DNA of 64,000 nt from an uncultured bacterium (lineage in GTDB: Bacteria > Acidobacteriota > Thermoanaerobaculia > Multivoradales > JAHZIX01): the NCBI GenBank assembly GCA_965368975.1, contig CBDUPA010000002.1, forward strand, positions 384,001 to 448,000, written 5' to 3'. A program made the translations under genes and the position numbers. A model generated the notes under the pieces. It was given only the letters and a program-made list of their open reading frames with translations, did no database searches and was not told the DNA's origin. Of this stretch, positions 31,248 to 53,108 are shown one piece after another; positions within the stretch are counted from its first letter, which is position 1, and every line of letters starts with the position of its first letter.

Positions 31248-31910
31248 TCAGCGCGACGTCCGACGCAGGTACGCATCGAGCCGGATACGGTCTTCGGCGG
31301 TGAGGAGGCCATCGGGTAGCAGGAAGGTGTCACCTTCCCGTGGCAGTGGCACAGTGGTCGTGGAGAGGCCGCCTTCGATGCCGTCGCAAGCGCCGGTGCC
31401 AAGCGTGAGGAGAGAAAACTGGCGACAGGTAGCGACGATGCCCTTGGCCAGATCGCTGCGGATGCGCACCTCGACTTCCTCCTGCTGCATCTCGACGAGT
31501 TCGATCAGATAGCCCTCGTCGCCGCGCCGCATCCGGATCCGGCCGTTCAACTCGAGATTCTGAGCCGGCAGCACCACGCGGTCGTTGAGCTTCTGCACCA
31601 TGCCGCCGATTTCCAACTCGGCGATGAGATCCCCGTCACCTTCGAAGCGTGTCCACAGGCGGGCGTCGTGACTGCCGTCGGACCGTGGGGCGAGGGTCAG
31701 CTGGTGGCCGAGCAAGTGCAGGGAGTTGCGCGGCGAGCTGAGGCGTACGGTCATCGGCCCCTGCGACACCGGCACCATGTCCGAGGTGGGACGTGTGTAG
31801 CGGCCATTGACGCGCGCGAACTCGAAGTCGTCGGCAGCAGCCGGCAGGGGTACGAGCAGCGTCAGGCACAGTGTGAGGCACGAGCTGAGACGGGCGAACA
31901 AGTGGCGCAT
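31248..31910 (-). CDS. Hypothetical secreted protein
   Basis: Signal peptide MRHLFARLSSCLTLCLTLLVPLPAAA; GGAGG SD. Confidence 0.7.
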   Translation of the reverse strand: MRHLFARLSSCLTLCLTLLVPLPAAADDFEFARVNGRYTRPTSDMVPVSQGPMTVRLSSPRNSLHLLGHQLTLAPRSDGSHDARLWTRFEGDGDLIAELEIGGMVQKLNDRVVLPAQNLELNGRIRMRRGDEGYLIELVEMQQEEVEVRIRSDLAKGIVATCRQFSLLTLGTGACDGIEGGLSTTTVPLPREGDTFLLPDGLLTAEDRIRLDAYLRRTSR

Positions 31911-31963
31911 GGGTGATCCTCCACCCAGAGAATACTCCATCCGTTGCAAGAGAGTTTCGGCCG

Positions 31964-34630
31964 CTAGTTGTAATAGCCCCGTGCCGTCCTCGCCTTCAGG
32001 CCACGCTTGGTCACCTTCACCTCGACCTCCCGGTAGGCACCATCTCGCGACACCGTGTCCGGCGCGTAGGCGATCAGGTACTGGCTACGCAGTTCTTCCT
32101 CGATCTCCTTGTAGACCGAGAACAGCTCATCAGCATCGCTGATGAAGAAGGAGCGGCCGCCGGTCTCGCGCGAGAGATCCTTCAGCTTGTCGCGAATGCC
32201 CAGGTCCAAGGTGCCGACATCGAGACCGATGGTATAGACCGAGACACCGGTGCGGCGCGAGTACTCCAGCGCTTCGCGGAAAGACAGGTTGCTCGACGTG
32301 TCATCACCATCGGACAGCAGCACCAGAGCCCGGCGGCCGGTGACACCGCGGAAGTAGTACAGGCTGGTGACGATGGCATCGTGCAACGAGGTGAAGCCCG
32401 CGGCCAGCAGGCCCTGTAGGCTGAGCTCCACCGCATCGACGTCGTTGGTGGGAGGCATCAGCATCACTGGTCGGTCCGAGAAGCCAACCGCGAAACAGCG
32501 GTCCCGGCGCGTGACGATGTTGGCGAGGAAGTCGGTCGCCGCTTGCTGTGCCTCAATGATCGAGTTGGCCATCGAACCGGAGGTGTCGATGACGATGCCG
32601 ATGGTCAGCGGTAGGTTCTCGACCAGCTCGAACTTGGCGATCTTCTGGCGCCGACCGTCCTCGTAGACTTCGAAGTCGTCGACGGTCAGGCCCTTGGCCA
32701 GGCGATCGTTGCGGTCGACAACGGTGGTGTAGAGCTCGACCAGGCTGACATCGACTTCCTCCAGGTACTGGGGCGTAGTCAGGAAGCGCACGTCTTCGGC
32801 CCGCGCGTCGTCGTCGAGTGTGGCCACGACGGTCAGATAGTTGAGGTCATTGCCGACCACCTGCGGCACCTCGACCTGCGCCTGCCAAGGCGGGCGTTCG
32901 AGCGTCCGAATCAGCTCATTGTTGACGAAGAACTCGACCTTCTCGACCCGCCGGCCCTCCGGCACCACGACTTCGGCGCGCGCCTGCACGGTACTGCCAG
33001 CCGAAACACCCCGCTTGGGTTCCAGGATGCGCACTCGCAGCGAACCACGGGGCTGGTTCAGAATCACTTCGTCCGAGGCCACCAGCTCACCGGCTTCGTC
33101 GTACCCCTCGGCACGTACGATCTGCTCGGTCGGGAACTGCGACAGGCGTACTTCGGCGGTGAAGGGCGGTCGGCCGCGCGTGAGCTGTCGCTTGCCGTCG
33201 ACATAGAAGATGACACGCGCGATGCGCTCACCGGTGACCAGAGCTTCGGCACGCCACAAGCCGAGGATGACGTCCGACTCCGGTGGCACCAGCACCAGAC
33301 TGTCGTGACCGGCGATGCGCTGGCGTGCCAGCTTGTCACCCAAGGCCACGATCGCTTCTTCCGGCAGCGGCGGCTCCTCAATCTTCTGCGGGCCGTCCGG
33401 CACGTCGATCGTGCGCACGTAGCGTTTCTCCGCTCCCCCCACCTCATCGCGCACCATCAGGCGCGCCAGGTAGCGCCGGCCCGGTCGCAACGGCCGCTCG
33501 GCCACCAAGGCCAGCGGCGCCGGGTCCTTGGGAGCCTCGAGATTGAAGCGCACGCGGAAGGTGTCGAACACGGCACCGTCCTGCTCGATGACGCCGGAGA
33601 CTGTGAGGTCCAGCTCCGGCGGCTCGAGCTCGGTCGCGATCTCGAAGTTGGAACTCTCCGGCAACAGCCAGGTGAAACGGGCCAGCAGGCGCTGCCCCTG
33701 GCGCTCAGGGTACTGGATCGTCAACTCCTCGACCTGCAGCTCGGACGGCGGCTCGACATCCGGCCCGGTGCTGGCGGAGCGGGCCCAGGCGGCCAGATCG
33801 CTCGGTGGCTCCAGGTACTGGGCGAACACCTGGTTGCTCGGACGGTCTTCCTCGAAACCGAAGAGGCCATCGATACCGGTGATCTCGTCGATCAGCTCGG
33901 CCTGCGGACAGATCTGGTAGTCGAAGCGACGGCCGCGAATGCGCCCGCGCAGCTCCTCCCACTGCTCGAGGAAGTATTCGAGTTCCGGCGTGTAGAGCGA
34001 ACGCTTGGAATCCAACGGCAGCCACAGACGGAAGAGTTCACCACCGGTACGCTGGTAGACGAGCAAGAAGCGCCCGGCGTCCTTCAGGTCGATGTCATCG
34101 TCGTCCTTGTCCTGACTACCTTCGACGGCAGCGGACGGAGCAGTCAGTGTCTTCGTGGGATCGCTCACTCGCAGCTCAGGGCGCACGTCGTAGGCCCAGA
34201 TCTCGATCGGTCGGAACGCCGAGGCGCAGTCGATCACCTTGCGGTATTCGGGTGGCCCGTGCAGGAAGACCAGCTGGGCGCGCACGTCGAGCGACGACAG
34301 ACCGACCTGACGCAGGAACTGGAGGCGCCGACGGATACCTTCCCGCAGCTCGTTCTCGGGCGTTTGCGGGATCGGATCGGCATCGAGAAAGGCGTCGATC
34401 AACGCTTGTCGAGCCACCGGGTCTGCAGCTGACAGCAGGACCTCGACTTGCGCCTCTGAGAGCAGCCAACCAGGACCATCTTGCAGAAAGGCGCGTTGCT
34501 CTTCCGGCCAATCGAGCGGCGCCTGGCCGCCGAGCTGAGCCGCAGCGGCCGGCGACGGGGAGGACGGCGTCAAAGCCATCACCAGAGCGAAGCAGAGGAG
34601 GGAGAGGAACGTTCGGGGACTGCGTTGCAT
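31964..34630 (-). CDS. Secreted GWxTD-like / Ig-like / VWA (Acidobacterial VWFA-type) protein
   Basis: Signal peptide; N-terminal DPIPQTPENE...LHGPP...IEIW; two Ig-like repeats (V.FYVDG...RPPF / V.FFVNN...RPPW); MIDAS DTSGS, LSDGDDT, ETGGRSF, LRSQYLIAY. Confidence 0.82.
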   Translation of the reverse strand: MQRSPRTFLSLLCFALVMALTPSSPSPAAAAQLGGQAPLDWPEEQRAFLQDGPGWLLSEAQVEVLLSAADPVARQALIDAFLDADPIPQTPENELREGIRRRLQFLRQVGLSSLDVRAQLVFLHGPPEYRKVIDCASAFRPIEIWAYDVRPELRVSDPTKTLTAPSAAVEGSQDKDDDDIDLKDAGRFLLVYQRTGGELFRLWLPLDSKRSLYTPELEYFLEQWEELRGRIRGRRFDYQICPQAELIDEITGIDGLFGFEEDRPSNQVFAQYLEPPSDLAAWARSASTGPDVEPPSELQVEELTIQYPERQGQRLLARFTWLLPESSNFEIATELEPPELDLTVSGVIEQDGAVFDTFRVRFNLEAPKDPAPLALVAERPLRPGRRYLARLMVRDEVGGAEKRYVRTIDVPDGPQKIEEPPLPEEAIVALGDKLARQRIAGHDSLVLVPPESDVILGLWRAEALVTGERIARVIFYVDGKRQLTRGRPPFTAEVRLSQFPTEQIVRAEGYDEAGELVASDEVILNQPRGSLRVRILEPKRGVSAGSTVQARAEVVVPEGRRVEKVEFFVNNELIRTLERPPWQAQVEVPQVVGNDLNYLTVVATLDDDARAEDVRFLTTPQYLEEVDVSLVELYTTVVDRNDRLAKGLTVDDFEVYEDGRRQKIAKFELVENLPLTIGIVIDTSGSMANSIIEAQQAATDFLANIVTRRDRCFAVGFSDRPVMLMPPTNDVDAVELSLQGLLAAGFTSLHDAIVTSLYYFRGVTGRRALVLLSDGDDTSSNLSFREALEYSRRTGVSVYTIGLDVGTLDLGIRDKLKDLSRETGGRSFFISDADELFSVYKEIEEELRSQYLIAYAPDTVSRDGAYREVEVKVTKRGLKARTARGYYN

Positions 34631-34887: not shown

Positions 34888-35943
34888 ATGGGTCGGCACC
34901 TCAGCAACGAACCAATCAAGAACTGGCGCGACGGCGACCACATCCAGGGTTTTGCCCTGCTGACGCGGAAGCAACGCCGTACGGACCGCAACAACCGCGA
35001 ATACCTAGACCTCGAGCTTGCTGATCGCAGCGGCTCGATCACCGCCAAAGTGTGGCCCGATAGTCCAGCGTTGCAGGCCGACTTCAAGGAACACCAGTTC
35101 GTAGTCTGCCGCGGTCAGGTGAAGCAGTTTCGCGAAGAGCTGCAGCTGAGTGTCGATAGCTGCCGCACGGCCAACGAACTCGACCGCCAGTTCGGCTTCG
35201 ACGAGTCTCAGCTGGTACCGTCCACTTCCGAGGACATCGACGATCTCTGGCGACGCCTGGAGACCACACTCCTCGAAGGCGTGGAGCGGCCCGTGCTGCA
35301 ACGCCTGGTCACCGAGACGCTCGCCAGAGTCGGCAAGGATCTGCGTGAGCACCCAGCCGCCAAGGGTATCCACCACGCCTACCGCGGCGGTCTACTCGAA
35401 CACACGACGTTCATGGCCGAGCTGGCCAATCGTACCTGCGACCAGTACCCCTACGTCGACCGTGATCTGGTGCTGGTGGGCGTGCTCTTTCACGACCTGG
35501 GCAAGATCCGCGAACTCGGTGCCATGCCCTACAACGACTACACCGTCGAGGGCCGGCTGATCGGCCACGTCGTGCTCGGCCGGGACCTGCTGCGCGAGTG
35601 CTGCGCCGAGGTCGAAGAGTTTCCCGCGGATCTGCAGATGGAGCTGGAGCACCTCGTGCTGTCGCACCAGGGCCGCCGGGAGTACGGCTCGCCAGTCGAG
35701 CCGATGACCACCGAGGCAGTCGTGCTGCACTTCGTCGACGATCTCGATTCGCAGCTCAATCAGCTGCGCCGTGCCGCGCTGCAGGGCGGCGATGGCCTGC
35801 ACTTCCTCAAGGGGATGGGCCGCTACATCTACAGCAGTCGCAACGGTGACCAGACCGAGTCGGCGGAGGAAGAGGCAGCCGACCCGGCAGCGGAGCCGGA
35901 CGAAGACTTCGCTCGTCGCGGCCCCGCAGAAGGTCAGCTCTGA
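34888..35943 (+). CDS. yhaM: OB-fold + HD 3'-5' exoribonuclease YhaM family
   Basis: YLDLELADRSG, PAAKGIHHAYRGGLLEHT, FHDLGK, GRLIGH, LSHQG, DDLDS. Confidence 0.88.
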   Translation: MGRHLSNEPIKNWRDGDHIQGFALLTRKQRRTDRNNREYLDLELADRSGSITAKVWPDSPALQADFKEHQFVVCRGQVKQFREELQLSVDSCRTANELDRQFGFDESQLVPSTSEDIDDLWRRLETTLLEGVERPVLQRLVTETLARVGKDLREHPAAKGIHHAYRGGLLEHTTFMAELANRTCDQYPYVDRDLVLVGVLFHDLGKIRELGAMPYNDYTVEGRLIGHVVLGRDLLRECCAEVEEFPADLQMELEHLVLSHQGRREYGSPVEPMTTEAVVLHFVDDLDSQLNQLRRAALQGGDGLHFLKGMGRYIYSSRNGDQTESAEEEAADPAAEPDEDFARRGPAEGQL

Positions 35944-35973
35944 GGTAGGAGCAGCAGGGCGGGTGGCGCCGGC

Positions 35974-36906: not shown

Positions 36907-36969
36907 GATGATGTCTTGCCTCCTTGGGGGGTTCATTGCATCTAGATCGACTTTGGAGCATATCAAGAG

Positions 36970-37764
36970 CTACTCTCCACGCAAGGGCGAGACCAACCTC
37001 AGCGTATGCTCGAGGAGTTCGCGACCACCCGGCTTGCCGTGTCCAGGCAGGACGATATTGACCTCCGGATAGGCCTTCAGAAGAACCTGGATCGAGCCGG
37101 GCCAGGCTTCGAGATCCGCGTCGGCGACGTTGCCGCGGCTCGTCGAGCCGGTGGAACGTACCAAGCAACCACCATACAGAGCCTTGGCCGACGGCACCCA
37201 CACGACGCTGTTGTCGCGCGCATGGCCGCCGCCCGGATAGCGCAGCTCGATATCGAGCTCACCAACACTCAAGCTGACCGTCTCGGTAAAGGTATGGGTC
37301 GGCACCTGCCAACCAGCCTCGGCTGCGAACTCAGCCGTCAACGCCGAGCTGTAGCTCGGAATGTCGCGGCGGTGCGCTTCCGCGATTCCGGCGATGCGGT
37401 CGTCATGGGCGTGCGTGACGACTAACGCGACGGTCCGGGCACCGAGCTGGGTCTCGACCCAGTCCAAGAGGGCACTGGTTTGGGTCTCGCTCCAGCCGGT
37501 GTCGACCAAGATCGCTTCGCCGCCATCGACAATCACCAGGCCGTTGGCAGCGACCATCCCCCACTGGGGCACCTCGCCGTAGGTCACATGCTGCCAGACG
37601 CCGGGTGCGAGGGCGTGCACCGCGACGTCCGACTGCAGCGTCTGAGCCCCTTGCGGGAAGGCCAGCGAGAAAGCCAGTGGCTCCGGAGCAGCCACTGACG
37701 GTGCGTTGAAGCTGGCCAGCAGAAGGTGCGTGACGAGGAGAAAGACTGTGCCCAGCTGCCTCAG
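36970..37764 (-). CDS. bla: Subclass B1 metallo-beta-lactamase
   Basis: All B1 Zn ligands: THAHDDR (H116/H118/D120), GGHARDN (H196), YGGCLV (C221), PGHG (H263), plus ANGLV, VDTGW, GNVADAD. First canonical start is GTG 37695; in-frame CTG 37764 adds a signal peptide. Confidence 0.9.
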
Positions 37765-39113
37765 TCCATCTGCTTGCGCAAGACGGTCGGGATGTCGTAG
37801 TCGTCGACATTCGACCAGTTCGGCCCGTATGCACCGGGATCGTCCGCTCGCTGGTGCGCCAGTACCTTGCGGTAGAACGGGACTTCGACGTCCTCCTCCA
37901 CCGGCGGGCGGACCGCCTCGAGGTCGTCGCCGTCTTCGATCGGTGCGGCCATGCGCGGCGCTGGCGCCGGCTCTGGGGCCGGACGAGCATCGATCTGACG
38001 GCTGGCCGCGGTCACGGAACGGCGGCGCTCAGCCTGCGCGTCCATCGCTTCGACGTCGAAGCCGGTGGCGATGACCGTGACCTTCATGGCGTCTTCCATC
38101 TCCTCATCGAGCACCATGCCGGAGATGATGTTGGCATCCGGGTCGACGGCGGCGGCGATGATCTCGGCGGCTTCCGCAACCTCGTGCAGGGTCAGGTCCT
38201 GGCTACCGGAGATGTTGATCAGCACGCCCTTGGCACCCTCGATCGACGTCTCTTCGAGCAGCGGGGAGGAGATCGCACGCTGTGCAGCCTCGACGGCGCG
38301 ACTCTCGCCCTTGGCGACACCGGTTCCCATCAGCGCCATACCCATACCAGTCATGATCGTGCGCACGTCGGCGAAGTCAACGTTGATCTCGCCAGGAACA
38401 GTGATCAGGTCACTGATGCCCTGGACCGCCTGGCGCAGCACGTCGTCGGCGATCCGAAAGGCCTCCGACAGCGGGGTGCCGCGCTCGACGAACTTGAGCA
38501 GGCGCTCGTTGGGAATGGTGATCAGAGTGTCGACGGCCGCACGTAACTCTTCCAGCCCCTGGTCGGCCAGGTGCAAGCGGCGGCGGCCTTCGAAGCTGAA
38601 CGGCTTGGTGACCACCGCGACGGTGAGCGCACCGATCTCGGCGGCCAGCGACGCCAGGATCGGCGCAGCCCCCGTGCCGGTGCCACCACCCAGGCCGGCG
38701 GTCAGGAAGATCATGTCCGAACCGTCGAGCAAGGACAGGATCTGCTCCGTGTCCTCGAGCGCGGCCTTGCGGCCAATCTCGGGATCCGAGCCAGCGCCCA
38801 GGCCCTTGGTCAGCTGGTTGCCGATCTGCAACTTGGTGGGCGCCCGGCACTTGTTGAGTGCCTGCAGATCGGTGTTGGCGGCTATGAACTCGATGCCGCG
38901 CAGGTCTGCGTCGATCATGCGGTTGACGGCGTTGCCGCCACCGCCGCCGATACCGATGACGCGGATCTTGGCCGGTGCACCGGCGTGCGCGCTGACGGTG
39001 AGGTCCGACGGCTCGACCGGCAACACCGCCGGCAAGCTCGCCTGGACCTCGCCGCCCTCGGCGTCGGTATCCGACTGCGCCATCGCTTCTTCTGTATCTT
39101 CAAATAGGATCAT
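37761..39113 (-). CDS. ftsZ: Cell division protein FtsZ
   Basis: [32 protein letters not shown]-terminal DIPTVLRK. Confidence 0.98.
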
Positions 39114-39172
39114 CGCCCTCTCCCTGTTGGGTTGTCTCCGGAACCCATGCGTAGGTTCTACGATTTCGGCGC

Positions 39173-40411
39173 TTACAGCAAGTCTTCGAACATACCGCGC
39201 AGGCTGCCCATCATGTCCCGCACGCTGAAGCCGCTGCGGCCTCGCTTTCGCTGTTGTTTTCTATCGGCCATTTGCCCCCACAGCAGCAGGCCGGCGGTCG
39301 TGCTCCAAGCCGGACTGTGGATGACTTCGACCAGGCCGCCCAGGCCTCGGGGAAGCCCGTGGCGAACGCCGGTGTCGAAGATCGGCTCGACCAGTTCGAG
39401 CAGACCGTCCATCTGGGCACCGCCGCCGGTGAGCACGACCCCGGCCCGGGGCGCCTCTTCATAGCCGTGACGGTGCAGGTCGCGCCGGATCAGGTTGAAG
39501 ATCTCCTCGGCGCGCGGCTGCAGGATGTCGCTCAGCTCGCGCCGCCGCACCACGCGGGTGGTGCCACCGCCGACCGGTGGCACGGAGATGCCTTCGTCTT
39601 CTTCCACCAGGTGCGGCAGGCAGCAGCCCTTGCGGATCTTGATCCGCTCGGCTTCGGCGAACGGCGTACGCAGCACGACGGCCAGATCATTAGTGAAGTG
39701 ACCGGCACCGACCGGCAGAACGCCCGAATGCTGCACCTCACCGTTGTGGAACAGCGCGTACTCGGTGGTGCCGCTGCCGACGTCGACCAGCAGGACGCCA
39801 AGTTCTTTCTCGTCACGGCTGAGAACCGACTCGGCGGTGGCCAGCACCTCGAACACCATGCCGTTGATCTCGACGCCAGCGCGGTTGACGCAGGTCAGCA
39901 AGGTGCGCGTGCGCGTCGTGTTGCCGGTCACCAGGTGCAGCATCACTTCCAGCCGGCTGCCCAGCATGCCGATCGGGTCCGCGATGTCGCCCTGCTCGTC
40001 GACGAGGAATTCCTGCGGAATGGCGTGCAGGATCTCGCGATCGGACGGCAGTGCCGCCGATTGGGCTGCTTCCAGCACGCGTTCGATGTCGTCGCGGGTG
40101 ATCTCACGATCCTTGCGCTTGACGGACACCATGCCGCGGCAATTGACGCTGCGGATGTCCGAGCTGGCAATGCCGACCCAGGCTCGAGTGATCTCGACCC
40201 CGGCCATGACCTCCGCCTCCTCGCTGGCCATGCGCAGTGCCTCGACAGTGGATTCAACGTTCACGATGTTGCCTTTGCGGGCACCGTGGTTGGGCGCTTC
40301 ACCTTTGCCCACTACCTCGATTCCGCCTTGGCCGTCCGTGACGCCAATGAGCACGCCGATCTTCGACGAGCCGATGTCGATTCCTACCAGGTAGTCTTCT
40401 GGTCTGGCCAT
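39173..40411 (-). CDS. ftsA: Cell division protein FtsA
   Basis: [29 protein letters not shown]. Confidence 0.96.
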
Positions 40412-40420
40412 GTCTCCGCC

Positions 40421-41647
40421 TCAACCTTGGTTCTGGGAGCCGGCGACTGCCGAAGGGACAGCCACTGCGTCTCCGGATTGCTCGATAGTGCCGCGCTGCG
40501 CGGGAAGGGATGTCATCTCGGCCTCGTCGCGGGTCCAGACCATACGGCCCGACACCCTCAGATCGAGCAGCCAACCGCCCTCGGGGTAGCGTGCTCGTAG
40601 TTCTGGCAACACTCTGGTCAGTCCGGACGCCTGGTGCTCCAGGTCACCGAAGCGGACCAACAGTGGGAAGAGCCCACGAGGCCGAAGGAGAAAGTCGTCG
40701 TCACTCAGAATTTCGATGCTCTGCAACTCGCCGCGCCACGGCGCGTCGACGCGCTGCCACTGACGCATCAGGTCGAGACAGCGCAGCACGTCCGTCTCGG
40801 AACGCAGCCCCTGCAGCTGCGGCAGTGCTTGCGCCAGCGGTTCGTCGGCAGGTTGAGCGCGTGCGATCGGCTGGCCCGCCGCATCGACGTAGCGGTAGCC
40901 ACTGCGGTCGAGCGCCAGGGCAACGGGTTGGCGCGCCACCGCCTCGACGCGCAGGCCGTCCGGCAACTGCTTGTCCAGACTGACGTCGGCGAGCCACGAG
41001 TGCTCCGAGAGCACGTGACGCCGCACCTCGCCCAGCGGCAGCAACAGCAAGTTCTTGCCCTGGTAAGGCTCGAGCGTCTTCAGCAACTCGGCTGCCGGCA
41101 CCCGCTCGGTGCCGTGCACCTCCAGCAGGCGGAGCGAGAACTGCTGCGCGGTGAAGACCCAAGCCACCAGCGCCAGCGGCAGCCCGACGGCGAACAGCAA
41201 CATCAGCAACCGGCGCGCGACCTGCAGCCAGCGGCGCGGCCGCCGGTGCTGCGGCACCACGTGACGCCGCGGGCGCGGCATTGCCGGTGCCAGAGGGGAC
41301 TCGGCGAGCGGTCGGCGGCGCGGTGTCGGCAGCACCTCGGCCCAGCCGGCACGCTGGGCCTGAGGCTTTCCTGCCGAGAGCATGCTGGCCGGCAGCGGGG
41401 CCATCGAGGGACGGCTCCCTGAAGACGCCACGCCCGAAGACGGCACCCAGGGCCGCGGCCTGCGCACGCAGGTCACCGAGGAGGCACCCGACGGACGGGC
41501 GTTGCTACGGTGCACGGCCGGAGCATCGAGGTTCTCACTAGCCGGTACCGGGCGATCGGTATCGAACTCGGGCGACCCGAGGGTTGGCTCCGCGGCTCGA
41601 TCACGACGCGGGCGATCTTTCGGCGGGAAGGCGTGGACGGTACCCAT
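40421..41647 (-). CDS. ftsQ: Cell division protein FtsQ/DivIB (long N-terminal extension)
   Basis: Single TM followed by POTRA-like VHGTERV...NLL...WLADVSLDKQLPDGLRV; C-terminal LDLR; position before ftsA. Confidence 0.8.
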   Translation of the reverse strand: MGTVHAFPPKDRPRRDRAAEPTLGSPEFDTDRPVPASENLDAPAVHRSNARPSGASSVTCVRRPRPWVPSSGVASSGSRPSMAPLPASMLSAGKPQAQRAGWAEVLPTPRRRPLAESPLAPAMPRPRRHVVPQHRRPRRWLQVARRLLMLLFAVGLPLALVAWVFTAQQFSLRLLEVHGTERVPAAELLKTLEPYQGKNLLLLPLGEVRRHVLSEHSWLADVSLDKQLPDGLRVEAVARQPVALALDRSGYRYVDAAGQPIARAQPADEPLAQALPQLQGLRSETDVLRCLDLMRQWQRVDAPWRGELQSIEILSDDDFLLRPRGLFPLLVRFGDLEHQASGLTRVLPELRARYPEGGWLLDLRVSGRMVWTRDEAEMTSLPAQRGTIEQSGDAVAVPSAVAGSQNQG

Positions 41648-43035
41648 CAAGCGGCCTCCTCCTGCACCAACTGTTGACCGAGGCGGTAGACATCACCGGC
41701 ACCGAGGGTCAGGATCAGATCGCCTTCGGCGGCATCTGACAGCACTTCTGGCGCTTGCTTCCAGTGCGGCACGAAGGTCACGTGCCGATGCCCGCTGGCC
41801 CGCGCCGCCGCCACCACCAGTTCACCGCTGACACCCGCGATCGGTGCCTCGCGCGAGGCGTAGACATCGGTCACCACGACTCTGTCGGCAGCCAGCAGAG
41901 CACGGCCGAAGTCTTCCGCCAGCAGGCGCGTGCGGCTGTAGAGATGGGGCTGGAACACGGCATGAACACGGCCGCCCGGGCACACCTGGCGGGCTGCACG
42001 CAGCACGGCGGTGACTTCGGTCGGGTGGTGGGCGTAGTCGTCGACCACGGTGGCACCGTGCCAGCTTCCAAGCTGCTCGAAGCGCCGGTGCACACCGCCG
42101 AAGCCGGACAAGGCCTCGGCGATGGCGGTGAAGCTCAGGTCCAGCGCCCGGCCGACGGCAACCGCGGCGAGGGCATTCTGGACGTTGTGCACGCCCGGCA
42201 TCGGCAGGGCAATCTGCCCCAGCTCGCCGAGTTCGGCAGCGCGTACCGTAAAGCGGCTGCCGTGATGATCCTGCGTCACTTCGGTGGCACAGAGCTCGGC
42301 CTGCGGACTCAAGCCATAGGAGGTCACGCGCCGTCCCGCCAGACGGGGAAGGATCTGCTGGATCTGGGGATCGTCGAGACACAGGATCACTTGACCGAAG
42401 AAGGGCACTCGGTTGGCAAAGGTGACAAAGGCCTCCTCGATCTCGCTGAGGTCACGGTAGGTGTCCAGGTGGTCGCAATCGATCGAGGTGATGACGGCGA
42501 TGATCGGCGCCAGGGTCAGGAAGCTGCGATCGAACTCGTCGGCTTCAGCGACCATCAGCTCGCTCTTGCCGTGCCGCGCCCCGGTACCCGTGACGCGCAG
42601 GCGACCACCGACGATCACGGTCGGGTCCAGCCCAGCCTCTGTCAGCACCGTGCCGACCAGCGAGGTGGTGGTGGTCTTGCCATGGGTGCCGGCAACCGCG
42701 ATGCCGTACTTGAGACGCATCAGCTCGGCCAGCATCTCGGCGCGGCGAACCACTGCGATACCCTGCTGACGGGCGGCCTGCACTTCCGGGTTGTCCGGTG
42801 GCACCGCAGACGAGACGACGACCAGATCCGCACCCGCGACATGCGCCGGGTCGTGCCCCTGGTGGATCTCGATACCCAGACCGGCGAGCCGGCGGACGGT
42901 CTCGCTCCGCGCCTGATCACTACCCGAAACCTTCAGCTCGTAATCGCGCAACACCTCGGCGATGCCACTCATGCCGGCACCGCCGATGCCGACCAGGTGA
43001 ATGTGGTCGAGACCGGTGAAACGTTGGAAGAGCAT
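41647..43035 (-). CDS. murC: UDP-N-acetylmuramate--L-alanine ligase
   Basis: IHLVGIGGAGMSGIA, AGTHGKTTTT, EADEFD, DDYAHHP, FQPHLYSRT. Confidence 0.96.
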   Translation of the reverse strand: MLFQRFTGLDHIHLVGIGGAGMSGIAEVLRDYELKVSGSDQARSETVRRLAGLGIEIHQGHDPAHVAGADLVVVSSAVPPDNPEVQAARQQGIAVVRRAEMLAELMRLKYGIAVAGTHGKTTTTSLVGTVLTEAGLDPTVIVGGRLRVTGTGARHGKSELMVAEADEFDRSFLTLAPIIAVITSIDCDHLDTYRDLSEIEEAFVTFANRVPFFGQVILCLDDPQIQQILPRLAGRRVTSYGLSPQAELCATEVTQDHHGSRFTVRAAELGELGQIALPMPGVHNVQNALAAVAVGRALDLSFTAIAEALSGFGGVHRRFEQLGSWHGATVVDDYAHHPTEVTAVLRAARQVCPGGRVHAVFQPHLYSRTRLLAEDFGRALLAADRVVVTDVYASREAPIAGVSGELVVAAARASGHRHVTFVPHWKQAPEVLSDAAEGDLILTLGAGDVYRLGQQLVQEEAA

Positions 43036-44186
43036 CAGCTGACCCTCCCCGCGGACGTCTTCGAGGCCAGCGCCAGCAGGTGGTTCGCAATGCGGGCAGC
43101 GGCATCTGGACGCGCCAGGCCGCGGGCAGCACGAGCCATGGTGCCGAGTTGGTCCGCATCGCGCAGCAGGCTGCTCAGACGGTCGGCGAGCACGGTGGCG
43201 GTCAAGTCGGCTTCGCTCTCGAGCAACTCGGCAGCGCCAGCCTCGACCAGCGTGCGCGCGTTGTCGCGCTGGTGGCCGAGAGCGAGCGACAGCGGAATGA
43301 GCAGCGACGGCCGGCCGGCCGCACACAGCTCGGCGAGCGTGATGGCGCCTGCACGGGAGACGACCAGGTGCGCACGCGCCATGGCACCGGCGACGTCGTC
43401 GAGGAAGGGGGTGACTTCGACCTGCAGATCGGGCAGGTCGGTACGCACCTCCTGGTAGGCCTCCTGGGTCAACTCCAGGTGACGCTGGCCGGTCTGGTGG
43501 AGCACGTCCAGGCGACCCAGCGTGCGCGCCGCCTGAGCGACCGCCGCAGGCACCAGACGGTTGAGCTGCAGCGCGCCCTGACTACCTCCCAGGATCAGCA
43601 GCCGGACGGGAGCATCGTCGCCCGGCGCTTCCAGGTCAGCGACCTCGTGGAAGGTCCGGCGGACCGGAATACCGGTGACCTCGGCGTCGCAGCTCAGTTC
43701 GCTCCGGGTGTGCTCGTAAGCGACCGCCGCGGCGTGGGCGAAGCGTGCCAGCTGACGGTTGGCGACGCCGCTCACCGCGTTGGGCTCGAAGAGCATCACC
43801 GGTCGACGGGCCAGACGGGCTCCGACCACCGCCGGCGCCGAGACGTACCCTCCGGTGCCCAACACCACGTCGACCCCCAGGCGGCGTACCAGGCTTCGTG
43901 CGGTGAAGGCCGAGCCGGTCAGCGTCAAGACAGCGCGCACCTTGCCCGCGAGCCCCTGCCCGACCAAGGGCCGGGCACTGAGCGGATAGAAGGCCAGCCC
44001 GTGCCGGGGTACCCAGCGTGCCTCCGGACCGGTGGCGGAGCCCGTGAAGCTCACCTGCCACCCCCGGTCACGCAGCTCATCCGCCAGGGTGAGCGCCGGA
44101 AAGACGTGCCCACCCGTACCGCCGCCAGCCAGCAGCACGTGCAGCGGCGGGGGTGCAGATGTGGAGGTGTGAGCGTCATCGTGCAT
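43035..44186 (-). CDS. murG: MurG N-acetylglucosaminyl transferase
   Basis: GGGTGGHVFP, GGYVS, GGSQGA, SRAGAITLAE, HQRDNA. Confidence 0.96.
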   Translation of the reverse strand: MHDDAHTSTSAPPPLHVLLAGGGTGGHVFPALTLADELRDRGWQVSFTGSATGPEARWVPRHGLAFYPLSARPLVGQGLAGKVRAVLTLTGSAFTARSLVRRLGVDVVLGTGGYVSAPAVVGARLARRPVMLFEPNAVSGVANRQLARFAHAAAVAYEHTRSELSCDAEVTGIPVRRTFHEVADLEAPGDDAPVRLLILGGSQGALQLNRLVPAAVAQAARTLGRLDVLHQTGQRHLELTQEAYQEVRTDLPDLQVEVTPFLDDVAGAMARAHLVVSRAGAITLAELCAAGRPSLLIPLSLALGHQRDNARTLVEAGAAELLESEADLTATVLADRLSSLLRDADQLGTMARAARGLARPDAAARIANHLLALASKTSAGRVS

Positions 44187-44192
44187 ATCCGT

Positions 44193-45269
44193 TCACGCAT
44201 GCTGGGAGACATTGAGCAGCAGGCCGCTGGCGGCCAAGGTAACCACCAGCGACGAACCGCCGTAGGAGATGAAGGGGAGTGGCACACCGGTCGGTGGCAG
44301 CAACGCCAGCGCGACGCTCACGTGGGCCAGCGCCTGCATGCCGAGCATGCCGGTCAAGCCCCAGGCGAGGGCGGAACCGAACTCGTCGGGCGCGGCCAGG
44401 CCGGCAACGATGCCGCGCCAGATCAGGAGTGAAAAGGCGCACAGGGTCGCCAGGGCTCCCACGAAGCCGAGTTCCTCGCAGATGATCGAGAAGATGAAAT
44501 CCGACTCCGCGTGCGGCAGGAAGTGCAACTTCTGCACGCTTCCTCCCGGCCCGAGGCCCGAAAGGCCGCCCGTACCGACGGCGATCAGCGACTGCAAGGG
44601 CTGGAAGCCACCACCCAGGGGACTGGCCGAGGGATCGAGGAAGGTGGTCACCCGCTCCAAACGGTAGGGCTCGAAGGCGATCAGGAGCACCAGCACGCCC
44701 AAGCCGATCACCGCGGCTGCCGTGACATAGCGTAGCGGCAGGCCGCCGAGGAAGAGCATCAGAGCGCCAGTCGCCAGCAGCAGGCCGCCGGTCCCCAAGT
44801 CCTGGCCGAGAATCAAGCCCGACAGCAGCAACATGACGACGCCGGCAGGCACCAGGAAGGTCGGCTGCTCGATCTCTTCCCCTCGACTGCCGATCAGGTA
44901 GGCCAGGTAGATGACCAGCGTCAGCTTGGCCAGCTCCGAGGGCTGGAACGAGACGCCACCGATGAAGATCCAGCGATGCACGTTGTTGAGCTGCGGCATG
45001 AAGTACACGCTGACCAGCAGAGCGACCGTGGCCAGCAAGATGCCGTAGACCACTTGCTTGCGCCGCAGCCACGTGTAGTCCAGGTGCATGGTGACACCCA
45101 TGACCACCGCGCCAAGAAGCGCCGCCAACATCTGCTTGACCAGCTGCAGGTTGACGGGATCACCCAGTGCCTTCGGGGAGCTGGCGGAGGCCACCATGGC
45201 CAAGCCGAAGACGGTCAACAGGGTGATGGAGGTGAACATCCACTTGTCGAAGGCGAGCTTCTTGGCCAT
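44193..45269 (-). CDS. ftsW: SEDS peptidoglycan glycosyltransferase FtsW
   Basis: RWI..GGVSFQPSE, DLGT, LPHAESDFIF, GVPLPFISYGGSS. Confidence 0.95.
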   Translation of the reverse strand: MAKKLAFDKWMFTSITLLTVFGLAMVASASSPKALGDPVNLQLVKQMLAALLGAVVMGVTMHLDYTWLRRKQVVYGILLATVALLVSVYFMPQLNNVHRWIFIGGVSFQPSELAKLTLVIYLAYLIGSRGEEIEQPTFLVPAGVVMLLLSGLILGQDLGTGGLLLATGALMLFLGGLPLRYVTAAAVIGLGVLVLLIAFEPYRLERVTTFLDPSASPLGGGFQPLQSLIAVGTGGLSGLGPGGSVQKLHFLPHAESDFIFSIICEELGFVGALATLCAFSLLIWRGIVAGLAAPDEFGSALAWGLTGMLGMQALAHVSVALALLPPTGVPLPFISYGGSSLVVTLAASGLLLNVSQHA

Positions 45270-46753
45270 CAGTTCACCACCTCCGGCAGCGCGGCCACCA
45301 GTTCGCAGAAGCGACGGCCACGGTGAGCGTAGCTCTGGAACTGGTCGTAGCTGGCACAGGCGGGCGACAGCAGCACCGCCTCGCCGGCACGGGCGACGCG
45401 CGAGGCCCGCTGCACGGCACTCTCCAGGGTGACGCTGTCCTCGCAGGGCGCGGCACCGGCGAAGGCCTGCTGGAAGGCCGACTTGGCCTCTCCGATCAGG
45501 TACAGGCGGCGGACCTTGCGCTGCACCAGCTCGCGCAGATCGCTCAGGTCGTCGCCCTTGTGCACACCGCCCAGGATCAGGTGAACCGTGCCATCGGGCA
45601 GGTCGGCCAGCGACTTGGCGGTGGCCGCTGCGTTGGTGCCCTTGGAATCGTCGTACCAGGCGACGCCGTCCAGCTCGCGCACCACCTGCATCCGGTGAGG
45701 CAAAGGACGGAAGTCGGCCAGGGCCCGGCGCAGATGCTGGGGTGCTGCGCCACGGGCACGTGCCAGCAGGGCCGCTGCCATGGCGTTCTCCAGGTTGTGC
45801 AGCCCACTCAGGTGGACGTCGGTGCGTCGGAAGAGTTCGACCGGTGCGCTCTCCGGCTGCACCTCGATGATCGCGTCACCGTCCAGGTAGCAACCGTCGG
45901 CCACCGGAGCGCGGTGCGAGAAGGTGCGTCGACGCGCGGTGCCGTGCATCCCCGGGCAGCCGTTCTCGATCCAAGCGGCAATCCACGGATCGTCGGCATT
46001 CAGTACCGCCACGTCGTCCGCCTCCTGGCGCTCGAAGATCGCCTTCTTGGCGCCGGCGTAGGCGTCGAAATCGGCGTAGCGATCGAGATGGTCCGGCGTC
46101 ACGTTGAGCAAGGCCGCGGCCCGGCAGCGGAAGGTCGACAGCGCCTCCAGCTGGAAACTCGACAGCTCGACGACGAAGCAGCGACCCTCTGCACCCCTGC
46201 CCGGCTCACCGCTGACACGATCGCTCAGCGGCTGCCCGATGTTGCCGCACACCTCGACCGCCTGGCCGGCGGCCCGCAGCATGGCACCGGCCAGCTCAGT
46301 GGTCGTGCTCTTGCCGTTGGTACCGGTGATGCCGAGGACCGGACCCGCGAGCAGCGGAAAGGCCAGCTCGACTTCCGCCACCACCGGCAGACCGGCCCGT
46401 CGGGCCGCGCTCAACAACGGCTTGCTGGGTGGCACGCCAGGACTCACCACGATGGCGTCGATCCTGGACAGTAGGGTTGACGTTGCTCCTGCAGCGTCAC
46501 TGCCGGTATCGAACTCTGCGCGCAGCTCGAACGCCTCGTGTTGGATCAGCTCGCGCAAAGCCTGTTGTTGCGGATCGATCTCCATCGACGGTCGGTCGTC
46601 GAGTCCCACCACCGTCACCCCGCGGGCGAGCAACAGGCGCGCCGCGGCACGCCCGGACAGACCGAGCCCGTAGACGGCCACGCGCAACCATCCCTGCTGC
46701 GTCCAGGGCAGGCAGCGGCTCGTCGGCGCGGGGTGGGGGGGAGTGCGTGACAT
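45269..46753 (-). CDS. murD: UDP-MurNAc-L-Ala--D-glutamate ligase
   Basis: GLGLSG, SPGVP, TGTNGKSTTT, ELSSFQL, DHLDRY, DDSKGTN, SPACASYDQF. Confidence 0.96.
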   Translation of the reverse strand: MSRTPPHPAPTSRCLPWTQQGWLRVAVYGLGLSGRAAARLLLARGVTVVGLDDRPSMEIDPQQQALRELIQHEAFELRAEFDTGSDAAGATSTLLSRIDAIVVSPGVPPSKPLLSAARRAGLPVVAEVELAFPLLAGPVLGITGTNGKSTTTELAGAMLRAAGQAVEVCGNIGQPLSDRVSGEPGRGAEGRCFVVELSSFQLEALSTFRCRAAALLNVTPDHLDRYADFDAYAGAKKAIFERQEADDVAVLNADDPWIAAWIENGCPGMHGTARRRTFSHRAPVADGCYLDGDAIIEVQPESAPVELFRRTDVHLSGLHNLENAMAAALLARARGAAPQHLRRALADFRPLPHRMQVVRELDGVAWYDDSKGTNAAATAKSLADLPDGTVHLILGGVHKGDDLSDLRELVQRKVRRLYLIGEAKSAFQQAFAGAAPCEDSVTLESAVQRASRVARAGEAVLLSPACASYDQFQSYAHRGRRFCELVAALPEVVN

Positions 46754-46766
46754 CAGCGTTGGATCG

Positions 46767-47852
46767 TCAACGTAGTTTCAGGGTCGAGAGACCGATCAGG
46801 GCGAAGATCAGCGCCAAGATCCAGAACCTGACGATGATCTTGGGCTCCTTCCAGCCCAGGAGTTCGAAATGGTGGTGCAACGGCGCCATTCGGAAGATCC
46901 GCTTCCCCGTCAGCTTGAAGGATGCGACCTGCAGAATCACCGACACGGCCTCGGCGACGAAGACGCCCCCGACCAGGACTAGCACCAGCTCCTGCTTGCA
47001 CAGCACCGCTACCGAGCCGATGGCGGCGCCGATCGACAGGGAACCGACGTCACCCATGAAGACTTCCGCCGGATGACTGTTGAACCACAGAAAGCCGAGG
47101 CTCGCACCCACCAGAGAGGTGCAGAAGACGGCGACTTCGCCGGTCCCGGGCATGTGCTGCACCTGCAGGTAGTTGGCGACGACGGCATTGCCGGCGACAT
47201 AGGTGAAGACGGCGTAGGTCCCGGCCGCGATCAAGGTGGCGCCAATCGCCAGGCCGTCGAGCCCGTCGGTCAGGTTGACGGCATTCGAAGAGCCAACCAG
47301 TACCAGCATGACGAACGGCACGAAGAAGAGGCCCAGCGGCACCACCAGGTCCTTGAAGAAGGGGAACGTGAGGGTCGGTTCGAAAGGCGTCTCCAAGGGC
47401 AGACGAGTGACCACCAGCGCCATGGCGGCGGCCACCAGGCATTGCGCCAGGAACTTCTGGCGCGACGTCAGGCCCAAGTTGCGGCCCCTGCGTACCTTGA
47501 TGAAATCGTCGAAGAAGCCGATGAGACCAAAGGCAACGGTCACCACGACCACCACCCAGACCAGCGGATTGTCCAGCCGTGCCCACAGGAGGGTCGCCGA
47601 CAGCCAACCGAAGAGGATCAGCAGTCCGCCCATGGTCGGCGTGCCGGCCTTCACCTGGTGACTCTCAGGACCGACGTCTCGGATGTTCTGCCCCACGGAC
47701 AAGCGGCGTAGCATGGCGATGAAGCGCGGACCGAGCAGCAACATCAGGATCAGAGCGGTCAGCGTTGCCCCCGCCGCCCGGAAGGTGATGTAGCGGAAGA
47801 CGTTGAACAGCGCGAACTGGTCGGCCAGTGGAAACAGGAGGTGGTAGAGCAT
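46767..47852 (-). CDS. mraY: Phospho-N-acetylmuramoyl-pentapeptide transferase
   Basis: KAGTPTMGG, NAVNLTDGLDGLA, FMGDVGS, MAPLHHHFE. Confidence 0.97.
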   Translation of the reverse strand: MLYHLLFPLADQFALFNVFRYITFRAAGATLTALILMLLLGPRFIAMLRRLSVGQNIRDVGPESHQVKAGTPTMGGLLILFGWLSATLLWARLDNPLVWVVVVVTVAFGLIGFFDDFIKVRRGRNLGLTSRQKFLAQCLVAAAMALVVTRLPLETPFEPTLTFPFFKDLVVPLGLFFVPFVMLVLVGSSNAVNLTDGLDGLAIGATLIAAGTYAVFTYVAGNAVVANYLQVQHMPGTGEVAVFCTSLVGASLGFLWFNSHPAEVFMGDVGSLSIGAAIGSVAVLCKQELVLVLVGGVFVAEAVSVILQVASFKLTGKRIFRMAPLHHHFELLGWKEPKIIVRFWILALIFALIGLSTLKLR

Positions 47853-49345
47853 CAGGCACTCCCCTCCGTCCCACCATGGCCCGACAGAGCCAGCTGCTCG
47901 TGGAGCGCTCTGACGACAACGTCGAGGCCAGCACCACGGGAGGCCTTGACCAGCACCAGATCGCCGGCGGACAGACGATCCGGCAGTTGCCGCGCCGCCG
48001 TCTCGGCATCGTGCAGCTCTTCGGCATCACCGCCGGCCGCACGTGCCGCCTGAGCGATCAACGATCCCAGCTCCCCGACGCCGAGCACGTGGAAGCCCAG
48101 CCGCGCGGCCACCCGGCCGACCTCGCGGTGCAGTTCCGGTCCGCGCGGTCCCAGCTCCAACATGTCACCCAGCACGGCCCAGCTACGACCAGCACCCCGA
48201 TGCTCAGCCAGTGTCGCAGCACCGGTGAGTGCGCTGCGCACAGCCTCCGGATTGGCATTGTAGGCGTCGTCGATCAAGGTGATGTCCTGCGCCAGTGCGC
48301 ACACCTCGCCGCGACCGGCGAGGGGCCGCACGTCGGACAGCGCGGCAGCGATCGCGGGCAACTCGACACCGAGGGCCCAGGCACAAGCAGCCGCGGCAAG
48401 GGCGTTGGCCACGTTGTGCCGGCCGTAGAGTGGTAGGGAGATGTTCTGCCGTCCCGAGGGCGTCTCCAAGACAAAGCGACTGCCGGTACCACTCTCGTCG
48501 GCACTGACAGCCCGGGCCACGACTTCGAGTTCGTCTGGAGCCCGCTCGTCGAGAGATGCGCTATCGCCTGCAGGATGAAAGCCAAAGTGGACCAGGCGGG
48601 TACCAGGATGCTGCGCGTGGTGCCGGCGCGCGATGCGCAGCACGCGCTCATCGTCGGCATTGGCGACGATCAGACCCTCGGCGCTCAGGCCCTCGAGTAC
48701 CTCGGCCTTGGCCTCGGCAATCGCGTCGAGATTGGGAAAGGACTCGAGGTGGGCGGCACCGACGTTGGTCACGACGACGGCTTCCGGCCGGGCCAGCTGG
48801 GACAGCTGCGACAACTCGCCGGGCGTCGACATTCCCATCTCGGCCACCATCCACTCCGTGTCCCGCGGAATCCCCAGCAGAGCCAGCGGGAAGCCGAGCA
48901 AATTGTTCAGGTTGCCAGGGTTGGCGGCAGTGCGGAAACGCGACGCCAAGAGGGCGGCGAGCATCTCCTTGGTGGTGGTCTTGCCGGCCGACCCGGTGAT
49001 ACCGACCAGGTGCCGAGGTAGATCCTGGCGTACAGCTAGGGTCAGATCGTGCAGCGCACCCAACACTTCCGGCACGGCGAGCAGTGCCCCCGCCTGGCAC
49101 CAGGACGCCCAGACCTGCGGGTCGCCCTGCGCTCGGCCAGCGTCGACCACCGCGGCCGCAGCCCCCGCGGCGAGGGCCGCGGCGACGAAGCGGTGTCCGT
49201 CGGTATGCTCCCCCGGTAGCGCGAAGAAGAGATCCCCGGCTTGCACACGACGCGAGTCGATGGCCGCACCAGTGAAGGACACCGCGCCATCGCCCGTCAG
49301 GTTGGCGTTCATCGCTCGTGCTGCGTGCTGGAGTGTCCGTTCCAC
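47852..49345 (-). CDS. murF: UDP-MurNAc-tripeptide--D-Ala-D-Ala ligase
   Basis: IDSRR, DGHRF, TGSAGKTTTKE, EMGM, DDAYNANP, LGDMLELG, KASRG. Confidence 0.95.
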   Translation of the reverse strand: MERTLQHAARAMNANLTGDGAVSFTGAAIDSRRVQAGDLFFALPGEHTDGHRFVAAALAAGAAAAVVDAGRAQGDPQVWASWCQAGALLAVPEVLGALHDLTLAVRQDLPRHLVGITGSAGKTTTKEMLAALLASRFRTAANPGNLNNLLGFPLALLGIPRDTEWMVAEMGMSTPGELSQLSQLARPEAVVVTNVGAAHLESFPNLDAIAEAKAEVLEGLSAEGLIVANADDERVLRIARRHHAQHPGTRLVHFGFHPAGDSASLDERAPDELEVVARAVSADESGTGSRFVLETPSGRQNISLPLYGRHNVANALAAAACAWALGVELPAIAAALSDVRPLAGRGEVCALAQDITLIDDAYNANPEAVRSALTGAATLAEHRGAGRSWAVLGDMLELGPRGPELHREVGRVAARLGFHVLGVGELGSLIAQAARAAGGDAEELHDAETAARQLPDRLSAGDLVLVKASRGAGLDVVVRALHEQLALSGHGGTEGSA

Positions 49346-49348
49346 GGC

Positions 49349-52728: not shown

Positions 52729-53108
52729 GGTGTGGCTCCCATCGACGCGGGCTCGGCGCGACCGTAGCGGTCGGCCGGCATGGTCACCAACTGCTCCGGC
52801 GTCGGCGGCCGCATCCCCAGCAATTCGGTGGCCAGACGCTCCACCCGCCGCGGCGTCGACAACGCCGCCGCCTGCTGATGCAGAGCGCGCTCTTGCTGCT
52901 GCACCTCGTCGAGTTCACGCTGCAGCTCGGTGACGTCGTAGCCCACCTGCCGAATCTGCGCCTGGAGATGGATCTGCGCCAGCAGCAGTGCCACCAACGG
53001 CAGCACCACAACCAGGATCCACCACAGTTCCCGGCGCCGGCGGCGGTCCCGCTGGCGTACCAGGAAGGTGTTGTGCACCTCGCGATCGACGGCGTAGATA
53101 CGACTCAC
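52725..53108 (-). CDS. ftsL: Cell division protein FtsL
   Basis: TM plus leucine zipper and RVERLATELLGM; between rsmH and ftsI; GTGA overlap. Confidence 0.85.
   Translation of the reverse strand: MSRIYAVDREVHNTFLVRQRDRRRRRELWWILVVVLPLVALLLAQIHLQAQIRQVGYDVTELQRELDEVQQQERALHQQAAALSTPRRVERLATELLGMRPPTPEQLVTMPADRYGRAEPASMGATP

Follow-up and report, generated by a model that had tools for sequence, protein, structure and literature searches.

At the locus described here, a metallo-beta-lactamase frame begins exactly where the cell-division gene ftsZ ends, and the signal-peptide-like segment at its head has no canonical start codon. The questions raised by this arrangement are what enzyme the frame encodes, how an exported form of it could be made, and whether its place behind ftsZ is a selected design or a by-product of rearrangement. 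The window analyzed is a single stretch of 64,000 nucleotides, and the features of it that bear on these questions are listed in Table 1.

Table 1. Features of the window around the ftsZ-lactamase junction.
Feature	Coordinates	Strand	Basis or remark
B1 metallo-beta-lactamase ORF, canonical part	36970..37695	-	GTG 37695 to stop; NF033088, VIM-1 match, model fold
Lactamase frame as a whole	36970-37764	-	CTG 37764..37762 to stop at 36970
CTGA overlap (ftsZ stop TGA and lactamase-frame CTG)	37761..37764	-	Read from the sequence
23-codon signal-peptide-like segment	37696..37764	-	Hydropathy, random-window test, codon-position GC, VIM-1 precursor alignment
ftsZ, 450 aa, last native dcw gene	37761..39113	-	Pfam Tubulin and FtsZ_C
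dcw cluster upstream	39173..54115	-	Pfam matches, junction sequences
ftsI, class B PBP transpeptidase	50953..52728	-	Pfam
Spacer between lactamase and DUF4412 gene, 63 nt	36907..36969	-	Strong Shine-Dalgarno for the DUF4412 gene; no stable hairpin
Secreted DUF4412-type protein gene, 310 aa	35974..36906	-	Pfam DUF4412, 22.2 bits (cut-off 21.6)
YhaM-like HD/OB exoribonuclease gene	34888..35943	+	First gene of the next native block
VWA-domain gene	31964..34630		Same native block as the YhaM-like gene
Gene 31248..31949	31248..31949		Same native block as the VWA-domain and YhaM-like genes

The gene encodes a genuine, intact and divergent subclass B1 metallo-beta-lactamase of a lineage that so far has no name. 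The protein scored 255.7 bits against the NCBIfam model NF033088 (bla_subclass_B1; cut-off 200), which places it in subclass B1. Residues 44-258 matched profile positions 3-216 of 217, and the catalytic domain spans approximately residues 40-258 of the 264-residue form counted from the CTG. Subclass B1 is defined by a Zn1 site of three His and a Zn2 site of Asp, Cys and His, as distinct from the His121 of subclass B3 and the Asn116 of subclass B2. The zinc ligands His118, His120, Asp122, His181, Cys200 and His242 (ORF numbering of the lactamase) were invariant in a 15-sequence alignment; all six align with those of VIM-1, and the residue directly after D122 is Asp, not His. The alignment with VIM-1 also showed that the Gly-Asn at the Asn233 position is retained and that an Arg, three residues past the Cys ligand, lies opposite a His of VIM-1; we take this Arg to occupy the Lys224 position and the Asn to be Asn233 in BBL numbering. 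An AlphaFold2 model of the lactamase had a mean pLDDT of 88.5, with values below 50 for residues 1-5 and 25-37 and low confidence for the others among the first ~38 residues. Foldseek matched this model to solved B1 enzymes, including CcrA, CIM-2, 9c3d, 1a7t and 9gx8, at E values of about 1e-30 and TM scores of 0.93-0.97 on target length, with rmsd values of 1.0-1.5 Å to the last three. As modeled, the lactamase has the alpha-beta/beta-alpha sandwich fold of B1 enzymes. A previous sequence-only reading of this DNA had described an intact B1 enzyme with all zinc ligands, Asn233 and an Arg at the Lys224 position, and the profile score, the invariant ligands, the predicted fold and the Arg that faces the His of VIM-1 bear out that description.

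The same reading had called the enzyme divergent, which also agrees with our results. Among the 25 NCBIfam models listed, all 23 models of named B1 families, which include VIM, MYX, PYX, COR, IMP/DIM/SIM, NDM, GIM and CfiA, gave scores below their cut-offs. The best of them were MYX, PYX and COR (202.8, 196.1 and 193.0 bits vs. cut-offs of 520, 473 and 450, respectively), and the scores for VIM and CfiA were 187.9 and 178.7 bits (cut-offs 500 and 550). In a collection of 5.8 billion proteins, the sole close relative was P0004, a metagenome protein of 212 aa with 81% identity, while the identity of all other relatives was at most 51%. The closest PDB sequences were VIM-1 (E = 2.4e-55) and CcrA (E = 3.5e-55). 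VIM-1/VIM-2 and CcrA (CfiA) share ~35-42% identity and the same zinc ligands with the lactamase, whose model superposes on them at about 1.1-2 Å, and the N-terminal signal region of the VIM-1 precursor aligns with the signal-like segment found here. Unlike the genes for VIM and CcrA, the lactamase gene described here is chromosomal, lies behind ftsZ and has no canonical start; VIM genes are integron cassettes. The myxobacterial MYX, PYX and COR enzymes and unnamed B1 enzymes from Acidobacteriota MAGs are environmental and chromosomal and are 40-51% identical to the lactamase. Many of these homologues have a Cys-containing, lipoprotein-like N-terminus, whereas the lactamase has no Cys there, and, in contrast to the lactamase, they have ordinary start codons.

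Two other B1-domain proteins encountered in the searches differ in architecture. In the metagenome protein P0012 (442 aa), a B1 lactamase domain follows a glutamine-amidotransferase domain, and at locus L053 an open upstream frame of 223 codons, without a signal peptide, leads into the B1 domain. P0012 and L053 are possible non-exported B1-domain fusions.

Between its bounding stops, the lactamase frame spans 352 open codons and extends upstream into ftsZ. Its first ATG, GTG or TTG is the GTG at 37695, and none of these codons is found further upstream. From this GTG, the best 12-residue Kyte-Doolittle window of the first 35 residues was 1.19, compared to 2.28 when the protein was read from the CTG at 37764, as expected from the previous claim that the signal peptide is missing from the GTG form and present in the 23 codons that precede it. 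These 23 codons encode one Arg, a hydrophobic core and a small-x-small motif and include no canonical start codon. Among 136,087 stop-free 25-codon windows drawn at random from the genome, just 1.2% reached a hydropathy value of 2.28, and 0.12% also had a basic N-terminus, no acidic residue and a small-x-small motif. The GC contents of the 23 codons by codon position, 0.65/0.35/0.78, are coding-like and near those of the rest of the lactamase gene. Judged by hydropathy and composition, the signal-like segment is real coding sequence. The predicted exported form of the lactamase would be reachable only from a CTG, and the near-cognate codons that still yield a signal peptide are CTG 37764 and CTG 37755. 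It should be noted that a Pro stands right after the cleavage motif that is most obvious by eye, so the cleavage site is uncertain.

The ftsZ stop codon TGA (37763..37761) and the CTG (37764..37762) share a 4-nt overlap, CTGA, the C of which occupies the wobble position of the final Asp codon in ftsZ; this overlap, already pointed out in the sequence-only reading, was read directly at 37764..37761. Its geometry is that of the 4-nt stop-start overlaps of coupled genes (ATGA, GTGA), in which bases 2-3 of the start are bases 1-2 of the stop. Classic coupled overlaps have a canonical start, whereas the start of the lactamase frame is a CTG with no Shine-Dalgarno sequence in ftsZ, and the arrangement is not conserved; the ftsZ-lactamase pair thus shares the 4-nt overlap of coupled pairs, and lacks their canonical start, their ribosome-binding site and their conservation. 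Elsewhere in the dcw cluster, the ATGA (52728/52725) and TGATG (47852, 45269 and 41650/41647) overlaps that had been cited for comparison were found, while the GTGA type cited with them was not among the junctions listed.

Start codons were also compared among homologues from metagenomes and GTDB genomes, a check that had been suggested previously. By script, 156 of the 160 homologous loci had a canonical start before a hydrophobic N-terminus, which leaves the CTG-only lactamase as an exception. Of the four misses, two were cut by contig ends, L168 had an ATG and a signal peptide on inspection, and L053 was odd.

Three other ways of producing a longer protein were considered and rejected. A frameshift fusion of FtsZ and the lactamase would need a slippery site, and none precedes the ftsZ stop, where a slip of one base backward would leave the Asp codon unable to re-pair. 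As for starts located deeper within ftsZ, the sole near-cognate codon is an ATA, from which a long charged leader would result. As a Tat signal, the leader from this ATA has its twin Arg too far, by eye, from the hydrophobic core.

With regard to transcription, a scan of 35700-39400 revealed one promoter site, which lies inside ftsZ at 38380-38353, and no terminator site. There is no spacer between ftsZ and the lactamase frame and hence no room for a promoter. Given that both a spacer and a terminator-like site are absent, transcripts that finish ftsZ would have to run into the lactamase gene, and read-through from ftsZ would be the only evident source of its transcript, which is in line with the earlier claim that the lactamase is appended to the dcw transcript. 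At the junction, in the spacer and at the operon end, folding was no different from that of shuffled sequences, and a search of Rfam gave nothing above chance. The DUF4412 gene is probably co-transcribed with the lactamase. It is the last gene of the transcription unit and converges on the YhaM-like gene, and the spacer in front of it had a Shine-Dalgarno duplex of -11.4 kcal/mol and a fold z-score of +1.42. The atlas features of its product matched DUF4412 clusters at 0.95-0.96. The protein also has an acidic and Gly/Arg-rich tail.

With regard to translation, Shine-Dalgarno duplexes computed with a generic anti-Shine-Dalgarno motif were -2.4 kcal/mol for CTG 37764, vs. a background median of -3.1 kcal/mol, and +1.2 kcal/mol for GTG 37695; neither codon is preceded by a Shine-Dalgarno match. 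CTG 37755 has a GAGG, at a distance of just 2-3 nt. Of seven further gene starts that were scored, six had duplexes of -6.5 to -11.4 kcal/mol, the remaining one being murG (-3.3 kcal/mol), and the overlapped starts of mraY and ftsW had values of -10.0 and -10.8 kcal/mol. Throughout the genome, XTGA junctions between two coding-like frames numbered 224 for A, 123 for G, 53 for T and 165 for C, and most of the C-type cases were ordinary TGATG overlaps or had a canonical start nearby. Among the 16 CTGA junctions examined in which the first canonical start lies 12 or more codons away, the lactamase alone needs the CTG. In the other 15, the extension looks like junk and the canonical N-terminus behind it is good; three of these proteins have a signal peptide after the canonical start. 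Because 15 of these 16 comparable junctions have good canonical N-termini, the genome appears to have no habit of CTG starts and to make no general use of CTGA-type starts.

The genes on both sides of the lactamase and DUF4412 genes are native to the family. Upstream, the dcw string is complete (rsmH, ftsL-like, ftsI, murE, murF, mraY, murD, ftsW, murG, murC, ftsQ and ftsA), and FtsZ is 69-73% identical to its counterparts in five relatives over its full length, with the C-terminal peptide and the stop conserved in same-family genomes. In the five same-family genomes, ftsZ ends with the same peptide, encoded as GAC-TGA in four and as GAT-TGA in one. As relatives without the lactamase end ftsZ with GAC-TGA in four of five cases, the CTGA would be ancestral to the ftsZ end and not created for the lactamase. 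In none of these five genomes does the lactamase follow ftsZ, so the synteny check that had been suggested for this pair went against its conservation. A non-coding spacer and a sigma-54-type regulator gene follow instead; the regulator, of ~460 aa, was present in all four same-family genomes whose region downstream of ftsZ was read. On the other side, the block made up of the gene at 31248..31949, the VWA-domain gene and the YhaM-like gene keeps its synteny in three same-family genomes with 55-64% identity, and in those genomes it is distant from ftsZ or not on the same contig. The lactamase and DUF4412 genes have no counterpart in the same-family genomes; the DUF4412 gene has no paralogue in its own genome and no copy beside the B1 genes of relatives.

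At two of the related loci, L031 and L034, the gene order behind ftsZ continues after the regulator with a kinase gene and a third gene. The corresponding genes of the genome studied here are on contig C4 at about 76-81 kb, with 51% and 77% identity, and sit behind a sigma-54-type regulator that has a different N-terminal part. No simple reciprocal junction of a rearrangement was visible at C4 76-81 kb.

Beyond the family, 40 other genomes of the same order contained five B1 genes with 39-45% identity to the lactamase, none of which is beside ftsZ. No ftsZ was found in the flanks of any of the 165 other B1 loci, which comprised these 5 same-order loci, 80 metagenome loci and 80 loci of GTDB genomes, at least 1 kb of upstream sequence being available at 53 of the 80 metagenome and 74 of the 80 GTDB-genome loci. 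The arrangement has been seen in a single genome so far, and a title-level literature search found no report of a lactamase in a dcw cluster or behind ftsZ. At another locus of the same order, L011 (G037 contig C15), a B1 homologue with 39% identity has one in-frame TAG inside the match and may be a broken copy.

Within 35800-37900, the search for flanking inverted or direct repeats or a recombination site revealed only short, chance-level repeats, and by this search the lactamase piece does not have the marks of an integron or other mobile cassette. The GC content and codon-position GC of the lactamase and DUF4412 genes match those of their neighbors. Compared across these genomes, the two genes make up a lineage-specific piece of 1.8 kb with a native block on either side, joined exactly at the ftsZ stop. 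Because the piece is lineage-specific and lies between native blocks, its own start was probably lost by rearrangement, which would have removed the initiation region of the lactamase. In the simplest history, the two breakpoints would have fallen immediately behind the ftsZ stop and at the start codon of the lactamase.

The coding sequence itself shows no decay by comparison with its homologues. In an alignment with 118 homologues, the lactamase departs from the consensus at one of the 31 columns with a conservation of 90% or more, and that column is the initiator Met; all of the 30 conserved non-start columns are kept, and the homologues' own departures at the 31 columns had a median of 1 (range 0-5). 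Differences between the lactamase and P0004 avoid conserved columns (2 of 60 vs. 39 of 152; Fisher p = 7.6e-5), a pattern that points to purifying selection somewhere between the two proteins and that does not distinguish the branch. P0004 was called from an internal start that corresponds to residue 49 of the lactamase, and such a call would fit a gene that also lacks a canonical start, although this is a weak hint. No FtsZ could be attributed to the contig of P0004: among proteins of 247-788 aa, the best match was 73% over residues 230-450, and among those of 30-246 aa, the best full-coverage match was 61%, from which the absence of ftsZ there does not follow.

We give an approximately even chance to a weak, coupled CTG initiation of the lactamase that arose as a by-product of rearrangement. 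The rearrangement would have stripped the lactamase of its own initiation region, so that its only transcript would be the far end of the dcw/ftsZ message. After termination at the ftsZ UGA, ribosomes could then re-initiate on the overlapping CUG 37764, or on the CUG three codons later, and yield a low, constitutive level of lactamase tied to ftsZ translation. The signal peptide would carry the enzyme to the periplasm, where, like other B1 enzymes, it would use two zinc ions to hydrolyze beta-lactams, and the link to cell division would be a by-product of the rearrangement and not a selected design. In favor of this reading, the enzyme is intact and without decay, its signal segment is coding-like, stop-start overlaps are used elsewhere in the dcw cluster, and CUG does initiate in E. 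coli reporters, if at a low level. Against it, the CTG is ancestral and was not selected for a role as a start, Shine-Dalgarno pairing is absent before CTG 37764, the genome shows no habit of CTG starts, and the arrangement is known from one genome. The wobble C of the CTG is unchanged here, though one relative carries a T. A stricter version, in which lactamase synthesis is slaved to FtsZ translation via the CUG, the dose follows the output of the division genes and the junction is kept in the organism of P0004, appears improbable to us; if it held, a resistance enzyme would in nature be hard-wired, through a non-canonical start, to the operon of its drug target. Alternatively, the gene may have lost its start and ribosome-binding site recently and no longer give rise to an exported enzyme, at most a cytoplasmic product from GTG 37695, its intact look reflecting too little time for decay; we regard this as a serious possibility, if one that falls short of an even chance. 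A Shine-Dalgarno match is missing at every candidate start, relatives without the lactamase already have the CTG, the lactamase is the sole CTG-dependent case among 16 comparable junctions, and the arrangement was seen in none of the five same-family genomes and at none of the 165 other B1 loci, all of which would fit a start-less gene. The same is true of the poor performance of CUG as an initiator, at 1-2% of AUG in the E. coli reporters described in one study (10.1101/063800). What speaks against a recent loss is that the 30 conserved non-start columns are all kept and that the differences from the 81% relative show a purifying pattern, the branch of which is not distinguished; the signal-peptide segment, moreover, is still open and coding-like, and the truncated call of P0004 hints that a start-less state may be old.

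Two further explanations concern the junction itself. The sequence-only reading had proposed that the lactamase was recruited into the division transcript for co-expression with FtsI, the beta-lactam target that it could shield, and a fuller form of this proposal has the enzyme track the division genes behind ftsZ, with the CTG serving as a deliberately low dose. We consider such a selected design quite unlikely. It is true that ftsI lies in the same gene string, that stop-start overlaps are common in the dcw cluster and that the enzyme is intact. Nevertheless, the design is conserved in no relative examined and the junction is without sign of optimisation, and a periplasmic lactamase would protect every PBP whatever its transcript, so that there is no obvious gain from this position. 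The claim of recruitment is not supported, in view of the ancestral CTGA, the lack of the pair in all five family genomes and at all 165 B1 loci, the missing Shine-Dalgarno sequence and the lack of any other CTGA-dependent gene among the comparable junctions. Alternatively, the contig could have been wrongly joined at the ftsZ stop, which we judge to be very improbable. The genome is a draft of 59 contigs, and in the DNA runs X1 and X2 no independent read or contig was seen across 37700-37800. X1 contained a 197-nt identical piece at 37277-37473, inside the lactamase gene, X2 contained pieces that, at low depth and with a similarity of 80% or more, covered parts of the DUF4412 and lactamase genes, and the ftsZ pieces in these runs were from other organisms only. 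Against a misassembly, two wrong joins would be required, both flanks being native to the family, and the piece resembles its neighbors in GC content and in GC by codon position; contamination is 0.09%, and the frame runs cleanly from the junction into the signal peptide.

What has been found is a known enzyme class in an unusual position, a single-genome oddity and no new kind of system. If the CTG is used, the locus would be a clean natural test of near-cognate re-initiation without a ribosome-binding site. If the CTG is unused, the locus would be a snapshot of a resistance gene silenced by rearrangement. In both cases, a divergent B1 lineage from sediment Acidobacteriota (Thermoanaerobaculia-like) is added to the environmental reservoir of carbapenemase-type enzymes. 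The stored gene call starts at GTG 37695, lacks the signal peptide and would mislead resistome surveys for exported enzymes.

Other starts and frames among the cell-division and cell-wall genes also deserve mention. FtsZ has about 26-42 extra N-terminal residues compared to the matches in relatives. The longest murC frame (41647-43326, minus strand) and murG (43035-44186, minus strand) have 292 nt in common, and the longest murE frame and ftsI have 94 nt in common; murC and murE probably start further downstream than these longest frames do. In addition, the minus strand of G000 contig C5 carries an 818-codon frame (L202:1488-3942) in which a full alanine racemase (TIGR00492, 279.9 bits), with GTG starts nearby, is joined in frame to a Mur-ligase-like C-terminal part; the dcw cluster has its own murF. 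This 818-codon frame is possibly a fused cell-wall enzyme.
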